From Klebsiella phage SEA1f: a stretch of 38,946 nucleotides of DNA. The translations under genes were made by a program, and so were the position numbers. The stretch lies in sequence record OR287805.1; one strand, written 5' to 3'. Positions 1 through 38,946 of this stretch are shown piece by piece; position 1 is the first letter of the stretch, and each line of letters begins with the position of its first letter. Under the pieces are notes generated by a model, which was given only the letters and a program-made list of their open reading frames with translations, was not told where the DNA came from and searched no databases.

Positions 1-158
1 CCATAGGCCCTCTTTCAGTCCAGACCAAAGGCCCTACCCCAGTCTATCATAAGGTTGGACAGATGGTCAATACTTCAGGTCAACGATAGGTCTAGGCTAT
101 GGCTGGAGGTCAGGACGATAGGTAGGGACTATGGGTCTTCTCTGAGTCCCTATCTGTA
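1..158 (+). repeat. Distal part of the putative terminal repeat. Continues from 38922..38946 across the window junction and is homologous to the T7 left terminal-repeat region.
   Basis: Window end (tctcacagttcaagaacctcaagtctcccc) plus window start (ccataggccc...) reconstitutes the T7-like left end TCTCACAG...CCCCCATAGGG. Positions 129..158 (tctctgagtccctatctgtata) match the T7 end-of-TR motif TCTCTGTGTCCCTATCTGTTACAG. Confidence 0.6.
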
Positions 159-232
159 TAACCATAAGTCACAACCTACATCTCACAACCATAAGTCACA
201 ACCATAAGTCACAACCATAAGACACCAACACC
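158..232 (+). repeat. Array of short direct repeats (unit about CATAAGTCACAAC, 3 good copies plus degenerate copies), analogous to the repeat array inside the T7 left end.
   Basis: accataagtcacaacc at 161..176; ataagtcacaacc at 191..203 and 204..216; degenerate ataagacaccaacacc at 217..232. Confidence 0.7.
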
Positions 233-2384: not shown

Positions 2385-5066
2385 ATGAGCGTCATCTCTA
2401 TTGACAAACACGACTTCTCTGATGTGTCGAACGCCATTGAGCCGTTTAACCTGCTGGCTGACCACTACGGGCAAGACCTTGCAGTCAAACAGCTTCAGCT
2501 TGAGCATGAGGCATACACTGAAGGCGAGCGACGTTTCATCAAGAACCTTGAGCGACAGACTGAGCGCGGGGAACTGGCAGACAATCAGGTCGCCAAGCCT
2601 TTGATGCAGACTCTGGTTCCTAAGATTGCGCAAGCAGTCAGGGAGTGGCATGAAGGTCCAGACGGGAAGCTGTCAACCTCTCGTCCGAGCGTAGCGTTCA
2701 CCATGTTGAGCACTGAAGAGAAGGCCGTTAAAGACCGCTCTATGCGCATCTCCTGCGCATCTGCTGCGGTTATCATACTGAAGGTCGTCCTCTCCAAGCT
2801 GGTCAAGCCTGAAGGGATACCGATTACACCGTTGGCCTCCGCGATAGGTCGCACACTTGAGGATGAAATCCGCTTCGGTCGCATTCGTGACAAGGAGAAG
2901 GAGCACTTCAAGAAGGCGATAGCTGAGAACCTGAACAAGCGAGCCGGGGCATCGTACAAGAAAGCCTACATGCAAGCGGTCGAGACATCCATGCTGGAGC
3001 AAGGCCAACTGGAAGATGCGTGGGGAACTTGGAGTCCGACCGAGGCTGTCCACGTTGGCATCAAGATGCTTGAGATTGTCATACAGTCAACACAACTGGT
3101 CGAGCTTAAGCGTTATGGTGCTGGCAATGCAGCGGCTGACGTTGAGATGGTCCACCTGTCAGACTTCTGGGTCAAGAAGATGGCACAACGCGGCTTCAGC
3201 CTTGCTGGTATCGCTCCAGTCTACCAGCCTTGCGTCGTTCCCCCTAAGCCGTGGACTGGTGTCGTAGGCGGTGGGTACTGGGCCAAAGGTCGCAGACCAT
3301 TACCCTTGATTCGCTTAGGGTCTAAGTCTGCGGTGGCGCGTTACGAAGACGTGTACATGCCTGAAGTCTATGACGCTGTGAATATCATCCAGAATACACC
3401 TTGGAAAGTTAACAAGAAGGTGCTGGAAGTGGTGAACATGGTCGAGAAGCTGAACAACACGCCTATTGATGACATCCCTCAGATGGAACCACTGAAGCCT
3501 GAGGACTATGCGGGTGAGACCGAGGAGGAACTCAAGGCATGGAAGAAAGCGGCTGCGGGTATCTACCGCCGAGAGAAGGCCCGGCAGTCTCGTAGATTGT
3601 CACTGAGCTTTATCGTTAACCAAGCGAACAAGTTCTCTCAGTTCAAGGCCATCTGGTTCCCGTACAACATGGACTGGCGCGGTCGCGTCTACGCTGTGCC
3701 GATGTTCAACCCTCAGGGTAACGACATGCAAAAGGGTCTCCTGACTCTGGCAGTCGGTAAGCCTATTGGTGCTGATGGTTTCAAATGGCTGAAGGTCCAC
3801 GGTGCAAACTGTGCGGGTGTCGATAAAGTCACCTTCGAGGAGCGCATCAAGTGGGTGGAAGACAACCACGACAACATCATGGCTGCTACTAAGGCACCGA
3901 TGGACAGCATTGAGTGGTGGGGCAAGTTAGACTCTCCGTTCTGCTTCCTAGCGTTCTGCTTCGAGTATGCTGGCGTAATGCACCACGGTTTGTCTTACTC
4001 CTGCTCACTGCCAATAGCGTTCGATGGGTCCTGCTCTGGAATTCAGCACTTCAGCGCGATGCTTCGTGACCACATCGGTGGACATGCAGTAAACCTGACG
4101 CCTTCCGGTAAGGTCCAAGACATCTACCGCATCGTGTCTGACCGCATTGAGGAGGAGCTTAAAGTCCTGCTGGTTAACGGCACGGACAACGAGATGGTGA
4201 CTCACGAGGACAAGAAAACTGGTGAGATTACCGAACGTCTCAAGCTGGGGACACGAGAGCTGGCCCGGCAGTGGCTGACTTACGGTATGTCACGCAAGGT
4301 TACTAAGCGTTCAGTCATGACTCTGGCCTATGGGTCGAAAGAGTATGGCTTCGCGGACCAAGTATACGAGGACATCGTGATGCCAGCGATTGACTCAGGG
4401 TCAGGCGCTATGTTCACCGAACCAAGCCAAGCGTCCCGCTTCATGGCTAAGATGATTTGGGAAGCTGTGAGTGTGACCGTAGTTGCTGCGGTAGACGCTA
4501 TGAAGTGGCTTCAAGGCGCTGCCAAGCTGCTGGCTGCTGAAGTGAAAGACAAGAAGACTGGCGAAATCCTGAAGCCTTGCCTTCCGGTACACTGGGTCAC
4601 ACCTGATGGGTTCCCGGTCTGGCAGGAATACCGCAAGAAGGATACCACTCGTCTGAACCTGATGTTCTTAGGGTCATTCAACCTTCAACCTACGGTCAAC
4701 AAGGGCACGAAGAAAGAGCTGGACAAGCACAAGCAGGAGTCAGGCATTAGCCCGAACTTCGTCCACTCACAAGATGGTAGCCACCTACGCAAGACTGTAG
4801 TCCACACTCATCGCAAGTATGGCGTGATGTCATTCGCAGTGATTCACGATAGCTTCGGAACCATCCCGGCTGACGCTGAGTATCTGTTCCGGGGTGTCCG
4901 TGAGACGATGGTCGAGACCTACCGCGACAACGATGTGCTGCTTGACTTCTACGAGCAGTTTGAATACCAACTTCATGAGAGCCAGCGCGACAAGTTGCCT
5001 GAGCTTCCGAAGAAAGGTAAACTGAATATCGAGGACATCTTGTCTTCAGACTTTGCATTCGCTTAA
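2385..5066 (+). CDS. Single-subunit DNA-dependent RNA polymerase (gene 1).
   Basis: 893 aa. Collinear with T7 RNAP (883 aa): DFSD, PFN.LADHYG, AIWFPYNMDWRGRVYAV, HGANCAGVDK, FDGSCSGIQHFSAML, TLAYGSKE, PNFVHSQDGSHLR, IHDSFGT, C-terminal FAFA. Specificity loop reads NLQPTVNKGTKKELDKHKQESG, against T7 RLQPTINTNKDSEIDAHKQESG. Confidence 0.97.
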   Translation: MSVISIDKHDFSDVSNAIEPFNLLADHYGQDLAVKQLQLEHEAYTEGERRFIKNLERQTERGELADNQVAKPLMQTLVPKIAQAVREWHEGPDGKLSTSRPSVAFTMLSTEEKAVKDRSMRISCASAAVIILKVVLSKLVKPEGIPITPLASAIGRTLEDEIRFGRIRDKEKEHFKKAIAENLNKRAGASYKKAYMQAVETSMLEQGQLEDAWGTWSPTEAVHVGIKMLEIVIQSTQLVELKRYGAGNAAADVEMVHLSDFWVKKMAQRGFSLAGIAPVYQPCVVPPKPWTGVVGGGYWAKGRRPLPLIRLGSKSAVARYEDVYMPEVYDAVNIIQNTPWKVNKKVLEVVNMVEKLNNTPIDDIPQMEPLKPEDYAGETEEELKAWKKAAAGIYRREKARQSRRLSLSFIVNQANKFSQFKAIWFPYNMDWRGRVYAVPMFNPQGNDMQKGLLTLAVGKPIGADGFKWLKVHGANCAGVDKVTFEERIKWVEDNHDNIMAATKAPMDSIEWWGKLDSPFCFLAFCFEYAGVMHHGLSYSCSLPIAFDGSCSGIQHFSAMLRDHIGGHAVNLTPSGKVQDIYRIVSDRIEEELKVLLVNGTDNEMVTHEDKKTGEITERLKLGTRELARQWLTYGMSRKVTKRSVMTLAYGSKEYGFADQVYEDIVMPAIDSGSGAMFTEPSQASRFMAKMIWEAVSVTVVAAVDAMKWLQGAAKLLAAEVKDKKTGEILKPCLPVHWVTPDGFPVWQEYRKKDTTRLNLMFLGSFNLQPTVNKGTKKELDKHKQESGISPNFVHSQDGSHLRKTVVHTHRKYGVMSFAVIHDSFGTIPADAEYLFRGVRETMVETYRDNDVLLDFYEQFEYQLHESQRDKLPELPKKGKLNIEDILSSDFAFA

Positions 5067-10974: not shown

Positions 10975-11019
10975 GGACCATGAGTCCTGTCCCTTTGTTC
11001 GCATTTGAGATTAAGAAAT

Positions 11020-11098
11020 GTCTCCATAGCTCAAACGGTAGAGCGGCGGGTCGTGATGGCCTATTGCGATTAGGGTTCGAATCCCCGTGGAGACGCCA
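11020..11098 (+). tRNA. tRNA-like element with encoded 3' CCA. Canonical acceptor, D and T arms; the anticodon arm is non-canonical or unresolved.
   Basis: Acceptor stem gtctcca / tggagac (7/7 bp), discriminator g, then cca. D arm gctc-aaacggta-gagc (A14, G18 G19, A21). T arm taggg-TTCGAAT-ccccg. The 26 nt between them cannot be folded by eye into a standard 5-bp anticodon stem with a 7-nt loop. Lies in the gene 4 leader, 15 nt before the gene 4 RBS. Confidence 0.5.
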
Positions 11099-11109
11099 CT
11101 AAGGAGTGA

Positions 11110-18114: not shown

Positions 18115-18358
18115 ATCAATCAGTAAGGCTTTCAAGAAAGTGGTTAAAAGTACGTTAGGGACCGTTGGTCTTGGCTATGACGATGCGCCTAAGGTTGTTG
18201 AGGCTCCAACCCCAGCAGCAGCACCAGTGGTAGTACCGAACGACAAAGTGGAAGATGTGGATACCGAAGTTACTGCATCTGACGAGAAGAAAGTGAAGCG
18301 TTCCGGTAAGCGTAGCCTTCAGGTATCTCGTACCTCTGGTGGAGGTATTTCTATTTGA
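18107..18358 (+). CDS. gp7.3 tail/adsorption protein.
   Basis: MGK...KA.KKV.KS N-terminus and the KRSL.VSRTSGGGI.I C-terminus match T7 gp7.3 (KKSLSVARSSGGGINI). Confidence 0.85.
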   Translation: MGKSISKAFKKVVKSTLGTVGLGYDDAPKVVEAPTPAAAPVVVPNDKVEDVDTEVTASDEKKVKRSGKRSLQVSRTSGGGISI

Positions 18359-18747
18359 CACCGTGTCATGAATGGGGTGGATACTGCACCAAGGATGGCT
18401 ACGGTGAAACTAGGGTAGAGGGGCGCAAGGTTCGCGTTCACCGCCTAGAGTGGACGAAACACTACGGACCCATTCCGCATGACAAAGTGGTTCGTCATAA
18501 GTGTGACAACCCTAAGTGTTTTAATATTGAACACCTAGAGTTAGGAACAACACAGGATAACACGGCTGACAGAGTGTCTCGGGGTCGAAGCGCCAAAGGA
18601 GAGGATAACGGTAACGCAGTCCTCACTATTGATATTGTTAATGAGATTCGCGAAAGTGGTATGTCTCAGCGCACAATAGCGAAGACCTATGGAGTGGCAC
18701 AGTCTACCGTATCTAAAATCAAACGCAATGTAACGTGGAGGTCATAA
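18355..18747 (+). CDS. HNH homing-endonuclease-like protein with a C-terminal HTH. Gene 7.7 position.
   Basis: HNH motif H-x-CDNPKC-x-N-x-EHL-x-GT-x-DN. C-terminal SQRTIAKTYGV.QSTVSKI helix-turn-helix. TTG start with GGAGG 9 nt upstream. Confidence 0.75.
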   Translation: MTPCHEWGGYCTKDGYGETRVEGRKVRVHRLEWTKHYGPIPHDKVVRHKCDNPKCFNIEHLELGTTQDNTADRVSRGRSAKGEDNGNAVLTIDIVNEIRESGMSQRTIAKTYGVAQSTVSKIKRNVTWRS

Positions 18748-18748
18748 C

Positions 18749-20317
18749 ATGGCAGAACGTGAAGGATTTGCGGCTGAAGGGGCGAAGGCAGTTTATGATA
18801 GGCTAAAGAACGGACGACAGCCTTACGAGACCCGAGCACAGAACTGCGCTGCCGTGACCATCCCCTCGCTATTTCCTAAGGAGTCCGACAACTCGTCTAC
18901 GGAATACGTGACGCCGTGGCAAGCTGTAGGTGCTCGCTGTTTGAATAACTTGGCTGCAAAGCTGATGCTGGCATTATTCCCTCAGTCACCGTGGATGCGA
19001 CTAACAGTCTCAGAATATGAGGCCAAGACCTTGAGTCAGGACTCAGAGGCTGCTGCTCGTGTTGACGAGGGGCTTGCTATGGTCGAGCGTGTGTTGATGG
19101 CCTACATGGAGACAAACAGTTTCCGTGTACCATTGTTCGAAGCTCTGAAGCAGCTTATAGTCTCCGGTAACTGTCTGCTCTACATTCCAGAGCCTGAACA
19201 GGGAACCTACAGTCCTATGCGAATGTACCGCTTAGTGTCCTACGTTGTTCAACGTGATGCTTTCGGTAACATCTTACAGATTGTGACTCTCGACAAGGTA
19301 GCGTTTAGTGCTCTACCGGAAGACGTGAAGTCTCAACTAAACGCAGATGACTATGAGCCTGACACAGAGCTGGAAGTGTATACGCACATTTACCGTCAGG
19401 ACGACGAGTATCTGCGCTACGAGGAAGTGGAAGGCATTGAGGTAGCAGGGACCGATGGTTCTTACCCACTGACTGCCTGTCCATACATCCCGGTACGAAT
19501 GGTTCGACTGGACGGTGAAGACTATGGTCGCTCTTATTGCGAGGAGTATCTGGGAGACCTGAACTCGCTGGAGACGATTACAGAAGCTATCACCAAAATG
19601 GCTAAGGTAGCCTCCAAGGTGGTGGGCCTCGTTAACCCGAACGGTATCACTCAACCTCGTCGTCTGAATAAGGCGGCTACAGGTGAGTTCGTGGCTGGTC
19701 GCGTCGAGGACATCAACTTCCTGCAACTGACGAAAGGTCAGGACTTTACGATTGCCAAGTCGGTGGCTGACGCTATCGAGCAACGTTTAGGATGGGCCTT
19801 CCTTCTTAATAGTGCCGTTCAGCGTAATGCCGAGCGCGTCACTGCTGAAGAGATTCGTTATGTTGCCGGCGAACTGGAGGCGACCTTAGGTGGTGTGTAC
19901 TCAGTACAATCCCAAGAGCTTCAGTTACCTATCGTCCGTGTGCTGATGAACCAACTTCAGTCTGCTGGCATGATTCCTGACCTTCCGAAAGAAGCGGTAG
20001 AGCCTACTGTCTCCACTGGTCTGGAAGCGTTAGGTCGTGGTCAGGACTTGGAGAAGCTAACTCAGGCAGTCAACATGATGACCGGTCTTCAGCAGCTCTC
20101 TCAGGACCCAGACATTAACTTGCCGACCCTGAAGCTTCGACTGCTGAATGCCTTAGGTATTGACACAGCTGGTTTGCTACTGACTCAGGATGAGAAGATT
20201 CAGCGCATGGCTGAGCAGTCGTCTCAACAGGCAGTTGTCCAAGGTGCTAGTGCTGCTGGTGCTAACATGGGTGCTGCTGTAGGTCAGGGAGCTGGTGAGG
20301 ACATGGCTCAAGCCTAA
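18749..20317 (+). CDS. Head-to-tail connector (portal) protein gp8.
   Basis: 522 aa. RLKN.R.PYETRAQNCA..TIPSLFPK.SDN.ST.Y.TPWQAVGARGLNNLA.KLMLALFP and many other blocks are near-identical to T7 gp8. Confidence 0.97.
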   Translation: MAEREGFAAEGAKAVYDRLKNGRQPYETRAQNCAAVTIPSLFPKESDNSSTEYVTPWQAVGARCLNNLAAKLMLALFPQSPWMRLTVSEYEAKTLSQDSEAAARVDEGLAMVERVLMAYMETNSFRVPLFEALKQLIVSGNCLLYIPEPEQGTYSPMRMYRLVSYVVQRDAFGNILQIVTLDKVAFSALPEDVKSQLNADDYEPDTELEVYTHIYRQDDEYLRYEEVEGIEVAGTDGSYPLTACPYIPVRMVRLDGEDYGRSYCEEYLGDLNSLETITEAITKMAKVASKVVGLVNPNGITQPRRLNKAATGEFVAGRVEDINFLQLTKGQDFTIAKSVADAIEQRLGWAFLLNSAVQRNAERVTAEEIRYVAGELEATLGGVYSVQSQELQLPIVRVLMNQLQSAGMIPDLPKEAVEPTVSTGLEALGRGQDLEKLTQAVNMMTGLQQLSQDPDINLPTLKLRLLNALGIDTAGLLLTQDEKIQRMAEQSSQQAVVQGASAAGANMGAAVGQGAGEDMAQA

Positions 20318-21436: not shown

Positions 21437-22430
21437 ATGGCAAACTTTCCGGGTCAGAAAATTGGTACAGACCAAGGTAAAGGCAAATCTGGTTCAGACG
21501 CGCTGGCGTTGTTCCTGAAGGTATTTGCTGGTGAAGTCCTGACCGCATTCACTCGCCGCTCTGTAACTGCTGACAAGCATATTGTCCGTACCATTCAGAA
21601 CGGTAAGTCTGCTCAGTTCCCGGTCATGGGTCGCACCTCTGGTGTGTATCTTGCTCCGGGTGAGCGACTGTCCGATAAGCGTAAAGGTATCAAACATACC
21701 GAGAAAGTGATTACCATTGATGGTCTGCTGACTGCCGATGTGATGATTTTCGACATTGAAGACGCGATGAACCACTATGACGTTGCTGGTGAGTATTCCA
21801 ACAATGGCTATCCTGTGTAACCTCCCATCCGCATCCAACGAGAACATCGCTGGTCTTGGTACCGCGTCCGTACTTGAAGTTGGTAAGAAAGCTGACCTCG
21901 ACACCCCAGCTAAACTGGGTGAGGCAATCATCGGTCAACTGACCATTGCTCGTGCGAAGCTGACCGCCAACTACGTTCCTGCTGGCGACCGTTACTTCTA
22001 CACCACGCCGGACAACTACTCTGCAATCCTCGCGGCTCTGATGCCGAACGCTGCTAACTATGCTGCGCTGATTGACCCAGAGACTGGTAACATCCGTAAC
22101 GTTATGGGCTTCGTTGTTGTTGAAGTTCCGCATCTGGTTCAGGGTGGTGCTGGTGAGACTCGTGGTGAAGATGGTATCTCTATCGCTTCCGGTCAGAAAC
22201 ACGCATTCCCGGCGACTGCTTCTGGCGACGTTAAAGTTGCTATGGATAACGTTGTGGGTCTGTTCTCTCACCGTTCTGCTGTGGGTACTGTGAAGCTGCG
22301 TGATTTAGCGCTGGAACGTGACCGTGACGTCGATGCTCAGGGTGACCTGATTGTTGGTAAGTACGCTATGGGTCACGGTGGTCTTCGTCCTGAAGCGGCT
22401 GGCGCACTGGTTTTCAGCTCAGCGATGTAA
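21437..22430 (+). CDS. Major capsid protein gp10A (T3-like). The reading frame is interrupted by a +1 frame change near 21800..21806.
   Basis: Frame 1 (21437..21820) matches the gp10 N-terminus through DAMNHYDV.EY(S/T), then stops after ...NNGYPV. Frame 2 (from about 21804) continues MAILCNLPSASNENIAGLGTASVLEVGKKADL... to the C-terminus GHGGLRPEAAGA, matching the T3 capsid. The two frames are offset by +1. Confidence 0.85.
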
Positions 22431-35458: not shown

Positions 35459-35653
35459 ATGATTGAGTTAGACTTCAAGAATGAGGTCCTTAAAGCCTCT
35501 CCTATCGTCGGGACCGCTGCGGCTGATGGTGCCAGTCGGTTCTTCTTCGGGCTCACACTTAACGAATGGTTCTACGTTGCAGCTATCGCGTACACCGTTG
35601 TCCAGATTGGTGTGCTAGTCTATAAAACGATTAAAGGAGGTGGTAAAACATGA
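35459..35653 (+). CDS. Class II holin gp17.5.
   Basis: 64 aa. LDF.NE..KA.PIVGT..AD...R.FFGL.LNEWFYVAAIAYTVVQIG is near-identical to T7 gp17.5. Confidence 0.93.
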   Translation: MIELDFKNEVLKASPIVGTAAADGASRFFFGLTLNEWFYVAAIAYTVVQIGVLVYKTIKGGGKT

Positions 35654-35913
35654 CGCAGATGGACTTAGAGAAGTTCCTCTTAATGCTGGATACTGAACGT
35701 GCTCGACTCATGCTGCAAGACCTTCGGGATGACTCTAAGCGTTCACCTCAGCTCTACAACGCCATTGAGAAGCTGCTTGCTCGTCACAACTTTGTGTTAA
35801 GCAAGGTGTCTGTTGACGAGAAGACTCTGGCTGATATGGAGGCCCTGAACGCAGAGTACGATAAGGTGCTTTCAGCGACTGAGGATAATGACACCGGGTA
35901 TGGCGTTCAATAA
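35650..35913 (+). CDS. Small terminase subunit gp18.
   Basis: 87 aa. RSPQLYNAIEKLL.RH.F is identical to the T7 gp18 motif. Confidence 0.9.
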   Translation: MTQMDLEKFLLMLDTERARLMLQDLRDDSKRSPQLYNAIEKLLARHNFVLSKVSVDEKTLADMEALNAEYDKVLSATEDNDTGYGVQ

Positions 35914-36014: not shown

Positions 36015-36464
36015 ATGCTCGAATTTTTAAAGAGAGTGGCTCCGTGGTTACTTGCAGCAGTGATGTTTGCTGGTGGCTACCACACCGCTAACAATAAGTG
36101 GGAGGCTAAGGTCAATGCAGAATACACCTCGAATCTTAAGGCATCGGAAGATACAAGGCTTGCTGTCCAAGCTGAAGTCAACAAAGTGTCAAAACGGTTT
36201 CAGGACGAAATGTCCTCGTTGGAAGGCAGCACTGATAGGATTATTGCTGACCTTCAGTCTGACAATAAGCGGTTGCGCGTCCGAGTCAAACCAACGAGTG
36301 GAACCACGCAAAGTGACGGTCGATGCGTCATTGATGGTTACGCCGAACTTGACGAACGAGATGCTAAACGTCTTATCGCCATCGGACTGAAAGGGGACAA
36401 GTGGATTAAGGCCCTTCAGGACACTGTGAGAGCCTTGCAGCAAGATAAGGAGGTGAAGCATTGA
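36015..36464 (+). CDS. i-spanin (Rz-like) gp18.5.
   Basis: 149 aa. MLEFL....PW.LA N-terminal [42 protein letters not shown] match T7 gp18.5. Confidence 0.93.
36115..36390 (+). CDS. o-spanin (Rz1-like) gp18.7, embedded in the +1 frame of 18.5.
   Basis: PRWK.ALIGL.L....TISGCASES lipobox plus a C-terminal VDASLMV.PNLT.EMLNV matching T7 gp18.7. GGAGG lies 9 nt upstream of the ATG at 36115. Confidence 0.85.
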   Translation: MQNTPRILRHRKIQGLLSKLKSTKCQNGFRTKCPRWKAALIGLLLTFSLTISGCASESNQRVEPRKVTVDASLMVTPNLTNEMLNVLSPSD

Positions 36465-38224
36465 GTAAAGACTTAGTGGCGCGTCAGGCGCTAATGACTG
36501 CACGTATGAAGGCAGACTTCGTGTTCTTCCTGTTCGTCCTATGGAAAGCTCTGTCCCTCCCAGTCCCGACTCGCTGTCAGATTGACATGGCGAAGAAGCT
36601 ATCGGCTGGGGACAACAGGCGCTTCATCCTACAGGCGTTCCGTGGTATCGGGAAGTCCTTCATTACGTGCGCCTTCGTTGTCTGGAAGCTATGGAACAAC
36701 CCAGACTTGAAGTTCATGATTGTGTCGGCCTCAAAGGAACGAGCCGATGCTAACTCCATCTTCATCAAGCGGATCATCGACCTCATGCCTCAGCTTAAGG
36801 AACTCAAACCTAAGCAGGGACAGCGAGATGCAGTTATCAGCTTCGACGTTGGACCAGCCAAGCCAGACCACTCACCTTCGGTTAAGTCAGTTGGTATCAC
36901 TGGTCAGTTGACTGGTAGTCGTGCTGACATCCTGATTGCCGATGACGTTGAGGTTCCGAACAACTCAGCGACTCAGGCTGCACGAGACCGTCTGTCAGAG
37001 CTTGTGAAAGAGTTCGACGCTATCCTGAAGCCGGGAGGTACAATCATCTATCTTGGTACTCCTCAGAACGAGATGACCTTGTATCGTGAGCTGGAAGGCC
37101 GTGGATACACCACTACTATCTGGCCTGCTCGTTATCCACGCGATAAGAAGGACTGGCAGTCTTACGGCGACCGTCTGGCACCGATGCTTCAGGCAGAGCT
37201 TGAAGAGGACCCTGAGGCCTTCTACTGGCGTCCGACCGATGAAGTTCGATTCGATGATACTGACCTGAAGGAACGTGAGCTGTCCTATGGTAAAGCTGGC
37301 TTCGCTCTACAGTTCATGCTTAACCCGAACCTGAGTGATGCCGAGAAGTACCCTCTGAAGCTACGTGACCTTATCGTAGCAGACTTGGACCCAGAGTCCA
37401 GCCCAATGGTCTACCAATGGTTGCCTAACCCTCAGAACAAGCGTGAGGACGTTCCTAACGTTGGACTCATGGGTGACTCATGCCACACGTATCAGACTGT
37501 AGGTTCTGCCTTCAGTTCGTACACCCAGAAGATTCTGGTCATTGACCCTAGTGGTCGTGGTAAGGATGAAACTGGCTATGCGGTACTGTACCAGCTCAAC
37601 GGATACATCTTCGCTATGGAAGTTGGTGGTATGCGTGGTGGCTATGAAGACTCTACGCTTGAAGCACTGGCTAAGATTGGTCGTAAGTGGAAGGTAAACG
37701 AATACGTCATTGAGGGTAACTTCGGTGATGGTATGTACCTTGAGCTATTCAAGCCTGTAGCGTCCCGTATCCATCCTGCTGCTGTAACTGAAGTGAAGAG
37801 TAAGGGTCAGAAAGAACTCCGCATCTGTGACGTTCTGGAGCCTATCATGGGGTCTCACCGACTTATCGTTAACGCTGCTGCTATCGTCCAAGACTACCAG
37901 TCGGCCTCTGATAAGGATGGCGTTCGTAACCCTATCTACTCTCTCTTCTACCAGATGACACGTATCTCTCGTGAACGTGGAGCCTTGGCACACGATGACC
38001 GACTTGATGCGCTGGCTATCGGTGTACAGTTCTTCGTTGAGTCTATGGCTAAGGATGCCAACAAGGGCGAACGTGAAGTCACTGAGGAGTGGCTGGAGGA
38101 ACAGATGGAGAACCCACGGAAAGGCTTCGAGTCCATCCACACTGAGTTCTGGGACAATGGGGTCAGGGTGACTCACGATACGGACGACGAGCTGGGACTA
38201 GGGTCATACGTTACGTTCCACTAG
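36461..38224 (+). CDS. Large terminase subunit gp19.
   Basis: 587 aa. [133 protein letters not shown] start with AAGGAGGTG 5 nt upstream. Confidence 0.97.
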
Positions 38225-38318: not shown

Positions 38319-38341
38319 ACTTAACTATCACTATAGGGAAG
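38319..38341 (+). promoter_or_regulatory. Phage RNAP promoter near the right end (phiOR-like), +1 G at 38336.
   Basis: acttaactatcactatagggaag. Confidence 0.8.
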
Positions 38342-38520: not shown

Positions 38521-38679
38521 ATGGCAAAGACCAAAGCTGTACTTAAAGCTCTGGCGACCAATCGAGCTACATACAGGTTTCTTGCTGCTGTTCTACTTGC
38601 TGCTGGCGTTACTGCTGGAAGTCAGTGGGTCGGGTGGGTCGAGACTCTCGTATGCTCTCTGGTGTCTGAGTGTCATTAA
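38521..38679 (+). CDS. gp19.5-like small membrane protein, 52 aa.
   Basis: Not in the ORF track (<60 aa). RBS caggagg 8 nt upstream. TYRFL..VL.A.G....G.........VCS.L resembles T7 gp19.5 (VTYRFLVVLCAALGY...SVVCSIL). Confidence 0.6.
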   Translation: MAKTKAVLKALATNRATYRFLAAVLLAAGVTAGSQWVGWVETLVCSLVSECH

Positions 38680-38921
38680 CGCCGTAATGGTAACAATCAA
38701 CGAAAGTAAGACCTAAGGTCAGTTCATAGCTGACGCTACTCTACTGACCTTAGCTACTGTAGTCAAGGACTTTAGGTAACACCTTAAGAGAAGCTCACTT
38801 AGGGTCATCCTACTTATTGGTCTATCCTAGCGTCGCCTGACCTACGGTCCTTGACCTACAGTGGCCTTGGCCTACAGTAGTGACGATGAGTTTTGGACCA
38901 AAAGTTTGAGACCACATCTCA

Positions 38922-38946
38922 CAGTTCAAGAACCTCAAGTCTCCCC
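38922..38946 (+). repeat. Start of the putative terminal repeat and physical left genome end (TCTCACAG...), 25 nt before the window end.
   Basis: tctcacagttcaagaacctcaagtctcccc joins with the window start ccataggccc to give a T7-like left end. T7 begins TCTCACAGTGTACGGACC...CCCCCATAGGGGG. Confidence 0.55.

Follow-up and report, generated by a model that had tools for sequence, protein, structure and literature searches.

Concatemers carry one repeat copy per genome unit (PMC5000459), and direct terminal repeats are produced when staggered nicks are extended by synthesis (PMC5557969). At the concatemer junction, the complex of polymerase and lysozyme pauses and, together with gp18 and gp19, starts maturation and packaging (PMC3276506). 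The first base of assemblies of such phages is arbitrary, T7 being the typical case (PhageTerm paper, PMC5557969). For two Kayfunavirus phages the ends come from experiment or read analysis: those of SH3 were obtained by run-off Sanger sequencing of phage DNA, in a paper that also cites 179 bp for the repeat of K1F (PMC4925675), and those of Peacock, with a repeat of 179 bp, by PhageTerm (PMC6763663).

The DNA analyzed here, referred to as the window, is the whole 38,946-nt stretch of Klebsiella phage SEA1f (OR287805.1), given as one strand. Compared with these systems, it is very probably a rotated assembly of a Kayfunavirus genome in which a single repeat copy was split by the cut, the virion DNA being linear with fixed ends and a direct repeat. 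The core of an initial annotation of the letters, namely that the assembly is rotated, that it contains a single collapsed repeat copy of about 180 bp, and that the left end lies at TCTCACAG, is supported by homology.

Identity, gene content, and sequence quality

By sequence similarity, the window is the genome of a Kayfunavirus of the Studiervirinae, a T7-like podophage of the K1F/EcoDS1 group. The genus was assigned by BLAST of the whole sequence and of both ends. The nearest record is Escherichia phage SP7 at about 93-97% identity (95-97.5% by megablast), and a single end-to-end alignment of SP7 with the window is 92% identical when alignment gaps are counted. DNA identity to the Kayfunavirus relatives with defined ends and to SP7 was 85-97% overall, with SP7 at the top. 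The record MT350292.1 ("Enterococcus phage EFA-1", labeled as an Enterococcus faecalis phage) was about 96% identical at the terminase, capsid, and junction regions; this probably reflects a mistaken host label or a contaminated sample.

The gene order, taken from the list of open reading frames (ORFs) and PHROG matches, is collinear with that of T7 and runs from ocr through RNA polymerase and terminase to gene 19.5. The ocr gene lies at 923-1258. A single-subunit phage RNA polymerase of 893 aa is encoded at 2385..5066 (plus strand; PHROG 414) and is 62% identical to T7 RNA polymerase. The small terminase subunit, a gp18 homologue of 87 aa, was taken from an ORF at 35650..35913 (plus strand); the syntenic 87-aa gene is so annotated in SP7, and related contigs gave a PF11123 match. 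The large subunit, a gp19 homologue of 587 aa at 36461..38224 (plus strand; PHROG 38, E=3e-131), is 66% identical to T7 gp19 and thus of the T7 type. Its ORF begins at 36461 with TTG (gaggtgaagcaTTGagtaaag), not ATG, and has the same length as the gene annotated in SP7 (587 aa). The final gene ahead of the right end, found in the ORF list, is a gene 19.5 homologue of 52 aa at 38521..38679 (plus strand). An identical gene 19.5 protein was found in 142 blocks of the public collection, each time encoded between terminase and the junction. Promoter searches gave 11 matches in the window, among them the equivalent of T7 phiOR at 38319..38341 (plus strand), where ACTTAACTATCACTATAGGGAAG is identical to the phiOR annotated in EcoDS1. 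This phage RNA polymerase promoter points rightward, through gene 19.5 and over the repeat.

Several segments distinguish the window from SP7. A stretch of about 380 nt (window 18357-18749) is extra relative to SP7 and contains an ORF at 18355-18747 that, by eye only, we take to resemble an HNH homing endonuclease. In the other direction, a 312-nt HNH endonuclease segment of SP7 is missing from the window after 15211, and 163 nt ahead of the terminase gene are missing after 36445. A tRNA-like gene at 11020-11098 was called tRNA-Thr with anticodon CGT by ARAGORN and scored 36.7 bits against the Rfam tRNA family. It is housed in an 88-nt segment (11016-11103) between the gene 4 promoter and gene 4, and this segment was not found in SP7, EcoDS1, or PDP351P4. 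At least 80% of a 241-nt query around the tRNA-like gene was present in 34 other phage records, and 2 records among the matches listed carry a tRNA annotation there. T7-like phages rarely carry tRNA genes.

The major capsid gene (gene 10; 21437-22430) lacks 50 nt after 21802 that are present in all compared relatives (CAGTTGGGTGAAGCTCTGGCTATCGCTGCCGATGGTGCGGTTCTGGCTGA). The flanks of the gap are 93-99% identical to these relatives, and the gap creates a stop codon at 21818-21820, leaving ORFs of 127 and 217 aa instead of one 347-aa gene. The sequence across the gap was found in no other phage record or IMG/VR contig, which suggests that bases were lost in assembly, that the genome is defective, or that the sequence was edited. 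Base-exact features of the window, such as the run of C discussed below, are therefore less certain. Compared with SP7, the window has two further gaps of 50 nt, after 16117 and after 7517. They were considered as defects and set aside, as they are not specific to the window; the capsid gap alone is.

Continuity of the two ends

A 100-nt query spanning the end-to-start join was continuous in 205 of the 211 matching phage records. The same held for SP7, the closest relative, for stretches inside IMG/VR contigs, and for 10 independent contigs from metagenomes or read archives, which were retrieved with the exact gene 19.5 protein. None of these related junctions (phage records, SP7, IMG/VR, and the 10 contigs) held extra sequence between the two ends. 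The junction was read from near relatives instead of from the same phage because an exact 52-mer from 176-227 had no match in IMG/VR and the exact tailspike protein had no match on record.

No second repeat copy was found inside the window, where the suffix/prefix overlap is only 2 nt and no word longer than 10 nt (ACATCTCACA) is common to the first and last 400 nt. With the join continuous in relatives, this upholds the single collapsed copy proposed in the initial annotation. Its statement that the ends are contiguous holds in that there is no intervening sequence, but not as an exact abutment, since the ends probably overlap by two C. Likewise, "circular permutation" describes the assembly and not the virion DNA, as ends are fixed in this group. 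Rotation of this kind is seen in many public Kayfunavirus records; the Peacock record also has one repeat copy, while most records with defined ends show both.

The shared 10-mer lies at 178-187 and 38914-38923; the latter site spans the left-end cut site, with ACA before the cut and TCTCACA after it, and the word's second occurrence is 27 nt past the right boundary of the repeat. It was rejected as a meaningful shared word: chance alone would give about 0.15 such matches, and only part of the word is present in K1F and EcoDS1. In two records, Providencia phage EPr2 (OM256482.1; L007/L008) and PP328844.1, the junction query matched four places, and the EPr2 record has four annotated "DTR" features. 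This suggests a misassembly in which about 500 nt around the repeat were apparently duplicated at each end.

Predicted left end of the terminal repeat

The 3' end of the window reads ...GTTTTGGACCAAAAGTTTGAGACCACA TCTCACAGTTCAAGAACCTCAAGTCTCCCC and its 5' start reads CCATAGGCCCTCTTTCAGTCC..., so that the string of the last 30 and first 12 nt given by the initial annotation, TCTCACAGTTCAAGAACCTCAAGTCTCCCC joined to CCATAGGCCCTC, is exact. Apart from two extra C, the last 30 nt (38917-38946) are the 28 nt with which the terminal repeat begins in EcoDS1, SH3, Peacock, EPr2, Vec13, and K1F. These six relatives, with annotated or measured ends, all begin TCTCACAGTTCAAGAACCTCAAGTCTCCCCATAGG. Base 1 of the window aligns with base 29 of EcoDS1, SH3, Peacock, EPr2, Vec13, and several further records, starting TCTCACAGTTCAAGAACCTCAAGTCTCCCCATAGGCCC. 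Ahead of the repeat, the final unique bases GTTTTGGACCAAAAGTTTGAGACCACA (38890..38916, plus strand) are conserved, being identical in EcoDS1, SH3, Vec13, K1F, Peacock, and SP7 and also in nearly all IMG/VR and metagenome contigs. Hence 38890-38946 agrees with the relatives' right flank and repeat start except for the two extra C. Because both the right flank and the terminus match, the direct terminal repeat would open with the 28-30 nt at 38917..38946 (plus strand) and continue from base 1. The left-end cut site is accordingly predicted directly 3' of base 38916 and the physical left terminus at 38917 (TCTCACAG...).

The initial annotation was partly confirmed here: its observation is real, and its coordinates are off by 5-10 nt. 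It had put the left end at 38922 and the cut 25 nt inside the repeat; TCTCACAG actually occupies 38917-38924, and the cut lies 28-30 nt inside. Its quotation of the T7 left end (TCTCACAGTGTACGGACCTAAAGTTCCCCCATAGGGGG) is right, and 30 of the 40 opening bases of T7 match the join. The 8-mer TCTCACAG, however, occurs twice in the window against 2.8 occurrences expected; at this chance level, the resemblance to T7 is by itself weak evidence. It was dropped as a proof, and the case relies on the Kayfunavirus relatives. The match to many Kayfunavirus left termini, with the 100-nt join continuous in 205 records, is far beyond chance as a sequence match.

A repeat search and alignment with relatives placed three 14-nt direct repeats of the CCTTGACCTACAGT / CCTACAGT type in the right unique flank (38835..38878, plus strand), in a position corresponding to that of the short-repeat arrays that flank the terminal repeat of T7. 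A palindrome, TTTTGG-A-CCAAAA (38891-38903), was tried as a processing hairpin and rejected, because two related contigs (L024 and L031) carry disrupting changes that are not compensated.

Predicted right boundary, repeat length, and virion size

The remainder of the direct terminal repeat is placed at 1..151 (plus strand), ending after GAGTCCCT. Window position 151 is where the repeat ends of EcoDS1, Peacock, EPr2, Vec13, K1F (with the published 179 bp), and T7 fall; that of SH3 maps to 154-155, and annotated boundaries among the relatives vary by up to 4 nt. In the window the boundary falls between GAGTCCCT and ATCTGTATAACC, positions 144-158 reading GAGTCCCT followed by ATCTGTA. The T7 repeat stops at ...GTCCCT with ATCTGTT as the first unique bases, and the repeat in the window should therefore stop at 151; from these alignments the right boundary is estimated at 151 (up to 155). 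The initial annotation had extended the repeat to about 158, which takes in ATCTGTA (152-158), a motif that the mapped end leaves outside. The closing motif that it likened to T7, tctctgagtccctatctgtata, is present and does parallel T7, but at 139-160 and not at 129-158.

Annotated terminal repeats of the relatives measure 178 bp in EcoDS1, 184 bp in SH3, and 179 bp in Peacock, EPr2, and Vec13; that of K1F is 178 bp by self-comparison of the record and 179 bp as published. A published SH3 primer, GCCCTACCCCAGTCTATCAT, equals window 31-50 exactly, within the repeat. The repeat of the window would thus join 38917-38946 to 1-151 and measure 181 bp in the sequence as it stands, or 179 bp with four C. 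The lengths in relatives and the boundary mapping agree with the earlier figure of about 180 bp. The virion DNA is calculated at about 39.12 kb (39,127 bp with the 181-bp repeat, 39,123 bp with the 179-bp one), in line with the earlier estimate near 39.1 kb, and would be 50 bp longer if the capsid gene gap is an assembly loss. Its right end would come after a second repeat copy ending ...GAGTCCCT.

In the left unique flank, a repeat search of 1-500 gave four copies of a repeat with a 13-nt period, of the ACCATAAGTCACA type (156..230, plus strand). The copy number of this type differs between relatives, and 3' of the copies come host-type promoter-like sites and then ocr. One site, 358-377, aligns with T7 phiOL and was considered as a phiOL-type phage promoter; it was rejected because it matches no other site in the window and is off the phage promoter consensus. 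It looks like a host-type TTGACT promoter.

Number of C residues at the join

Plain abutment of the window ends gives six C, from the CCCC at the end and the CC at the start. Junctions of relatives have fewer. The run is four C in 18 and five C in 2 of the IMG/VR junction stretches, four C in 9 and three C in 1 of the metagenome and read-archive contigs, and four C in SP7. In the best 60 of the 211 phage records, the footprint of the 100-nt query is 98 nt long in 52 cases, 97 nt in 6, and 99 nt in 2, and never the full 100 nt. Six C were seen in none of about 90 Kayfunavirus junctions, where the run ranges from three to five and is mostly four. Since a run of six is unmatched in relatives, either the ends do not simply adjoin or the run of this phage is unusual. 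Comparison with these junctions indicates that two bases were probably duplicated at the cut, so that the ends overlap by two C; a 2-nt duplication is the simplest reading of an end in CCCC and a start in CC.

A smaller possibility, and an unlikely one, is that the ends abut exactly; positions 27-32 of the repeat would then be six genuine C, the repeat would measure 181 bp, and no base at the cut would be duplicated. The length of the run does vary in the subfamily (eight in T3, five in T7, three to five in Kayfunavirus), a repeat of 181 bp is inside the genus range of 166-212 nt, and a 2-nt suffix/prefix match arises by chance in about 5% of cases, so that "CC" alone is no proof of an overlap. 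Against this reading stand the roughly 90 Kayfunavirus junctions, none with six C, the 179 bp that four C would give, which is the modal value of the genus, and the other clear defect in this sequence, the gap in the capsid gene.

Packaging model and the nature of the ends

In the reading preferred here, a rotated assembly with one split repeat copy, the virion DNA of the group would be a linear molecule whose fixed ends carry an exact direct repeat, and both replicating DNA and short-read assemblies would have one repeat copy between genome units. Given this single copy between units, an assembler would close the circle and open it at an arbitrary base, which here would have fallen 28-30 nt inside the repeat. 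By analogy with T7 and T3, transcripts from the phiOR-type promoter (38319-38341) would run over the repeat, and the phage RNA polymerase would pause just past it at ATCTGTA (152-158). The terminase (gp18 and gp19) would then be recruited to the junction signal, and staggered nicks at both repeat boundaries followed by fill-in would yield two repeat copies per packaged genome. All components of this scheme (promoter, repeat, junction motif, and terminase genes) are present in the window in T7 order.

Headful (pac) packaging, in which the virion DNA would be truly circularly permuted and without fixed ends, is very improbable: assemblies of such phages close into circles too, but the large terminase is of the T7 gp19 type (66% identical), fixed ends were found in close relatives by run-off sequencing and PhageTerm, and the terminal and junction motifs are conserved with T7 and T3. 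Just as improbable is an incomplete assembly that lost unique sequence between 38946 and 1. Losses do occur in this sequence, as the 50 nt missing from the capsid gene indicate; at the ends, however, the relatives join without extra bases, and the window is two bases longer than they are, not shorter. That the window ends are the real virion ends, with a terminal repeat that is absent or of 2 nt, has nothing in its favor beyond the record's own start and stop and is close to negligible, because the 28-30 nt on the right and 151 nt on the left are halves of a repeat that is continuous in relatives, relatives with measured ends start 28 nt upstream of window base 1, and concatemer formation in T7-type replication needs the repeat (established T7 knowledge; role cited in PMC4925675).

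Rotated, repeat-collapsed assembly of a T7-like genome is already known biology and a routine property of assembly; being a textbook case, it opens no biological question. Its value is practical: a correct deposit would start at 38917 after rotation and carry another repeat copy on the right, and true ends matter for comparative and engineering work, for instance when a phage is rebooted from synthetic DNA.

Junction motif ATCTGTA

The first unique bases past the repeat, ATCTGTA (152..158, plus strand), are by position and context the putative counterpart of the class II pause signal ATCTGTT of T7 and T3; the stretch carrying them reads ...GAGTCCCTATCTGTATAACC.... The motif was invariant in more than 30 Kayfunavirus junctions examined (including loci among L001-L054), at a distance from the left end of 166-212 nt, most often 179-180. 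The EcoDS1 record labels the site "concatemeric junction", and the boundary GAGTC(C/T)CT followed by ATCTGTA is conserved in Kayfunavirus relatives. Its position and context agree with the junction in T7 and T3. The class II signal of T7 RNA polymerase, ATCTGTT, is reported to be strictly conserved and preceded by A, C, or T, and the T7 enzyme is reported to tolerate no base change in it. The window departs from the strict motif, reading T-ATCTGTA with A instead of T as the seventh base.

A polymerase pause at ATCTGTA in Kayfunavirus is thus assumed by analogy. With ATCTGTA found throughout the genus, the T7 enzyme intolerant of changes, and the two polymerases 62% identical, K1F-type RNA polymerases may read a shifted class II signal, or packaging in the genus may start without a pause; we offer this as a tentative and rather doubtful suggestion. 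If true, ATCTGTA would be part of a co-evolved polymerase-signal pair, usable as an orthogonal terminator.

Comparison with known systems

The nearest systems are K1F, EcoDS1, SH3, Vec13, and Peacock, which have the same left terminus (TCTCACAGTTCAAGAACCTCAAGTCTCCCCATAGG), the same right unique flank, and the boundary GAGTC(C/T)CT before ATCTGTA. Their repeats are 178-184 bp, and their gene order and phiOR promoter are as in the window. The window differs from them in having one split repeat copy and six C at the join, versus four.

T7 resembles the window in its left end TCTCACAG, in a run of C followed by ATAGG about 25 nt in, in a phiOR-type promoter upstream, and in its homologous terminase and RNA polymerase. 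Its repeat ends ...CTCTCTGTGTCCCT (...GTGTCCCT) and is followed by ATCTGTT, the same layout as in the window. The differences lie in the repeat, which is 160 bp in T7 and 179-181 bp in the window with a largely unrelated interior, in the motif (ATCTGTT versus ATCTGTA), and in the short flanking repeats, CCTAAAG in T7 and of the ACCATAAG and CCTACAG types in the window. T7 also has phiOL, and no phiOL-like phage promoter was found in the window left of gene 0.3. T3 starts TCTCATAGTTCAAGAACC..., nearer to the window than T7 across the first 18 nt, and likewise has a run of C followed by ATAG and the boundary GTGTCCCT before ATCTGTT; it differs in a longer repeat (231 bp), eight C, and T as the seventh base of the motif.

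Common to the window, T7, and T3 is the layout TCTCA(C/T)AG...C-run-ATAG...GTC(C/T)CT followed by ATCTGT. Compared with the rotated, repeat-collapsed assemblies of phages with direct terminal repeats (DTR), the problem that PhageTerm addresses, the window has the same single copy and arbitrary first base with no substantive difference, and its only peculiarity is that the cut fell inside the repeat, near the true end.
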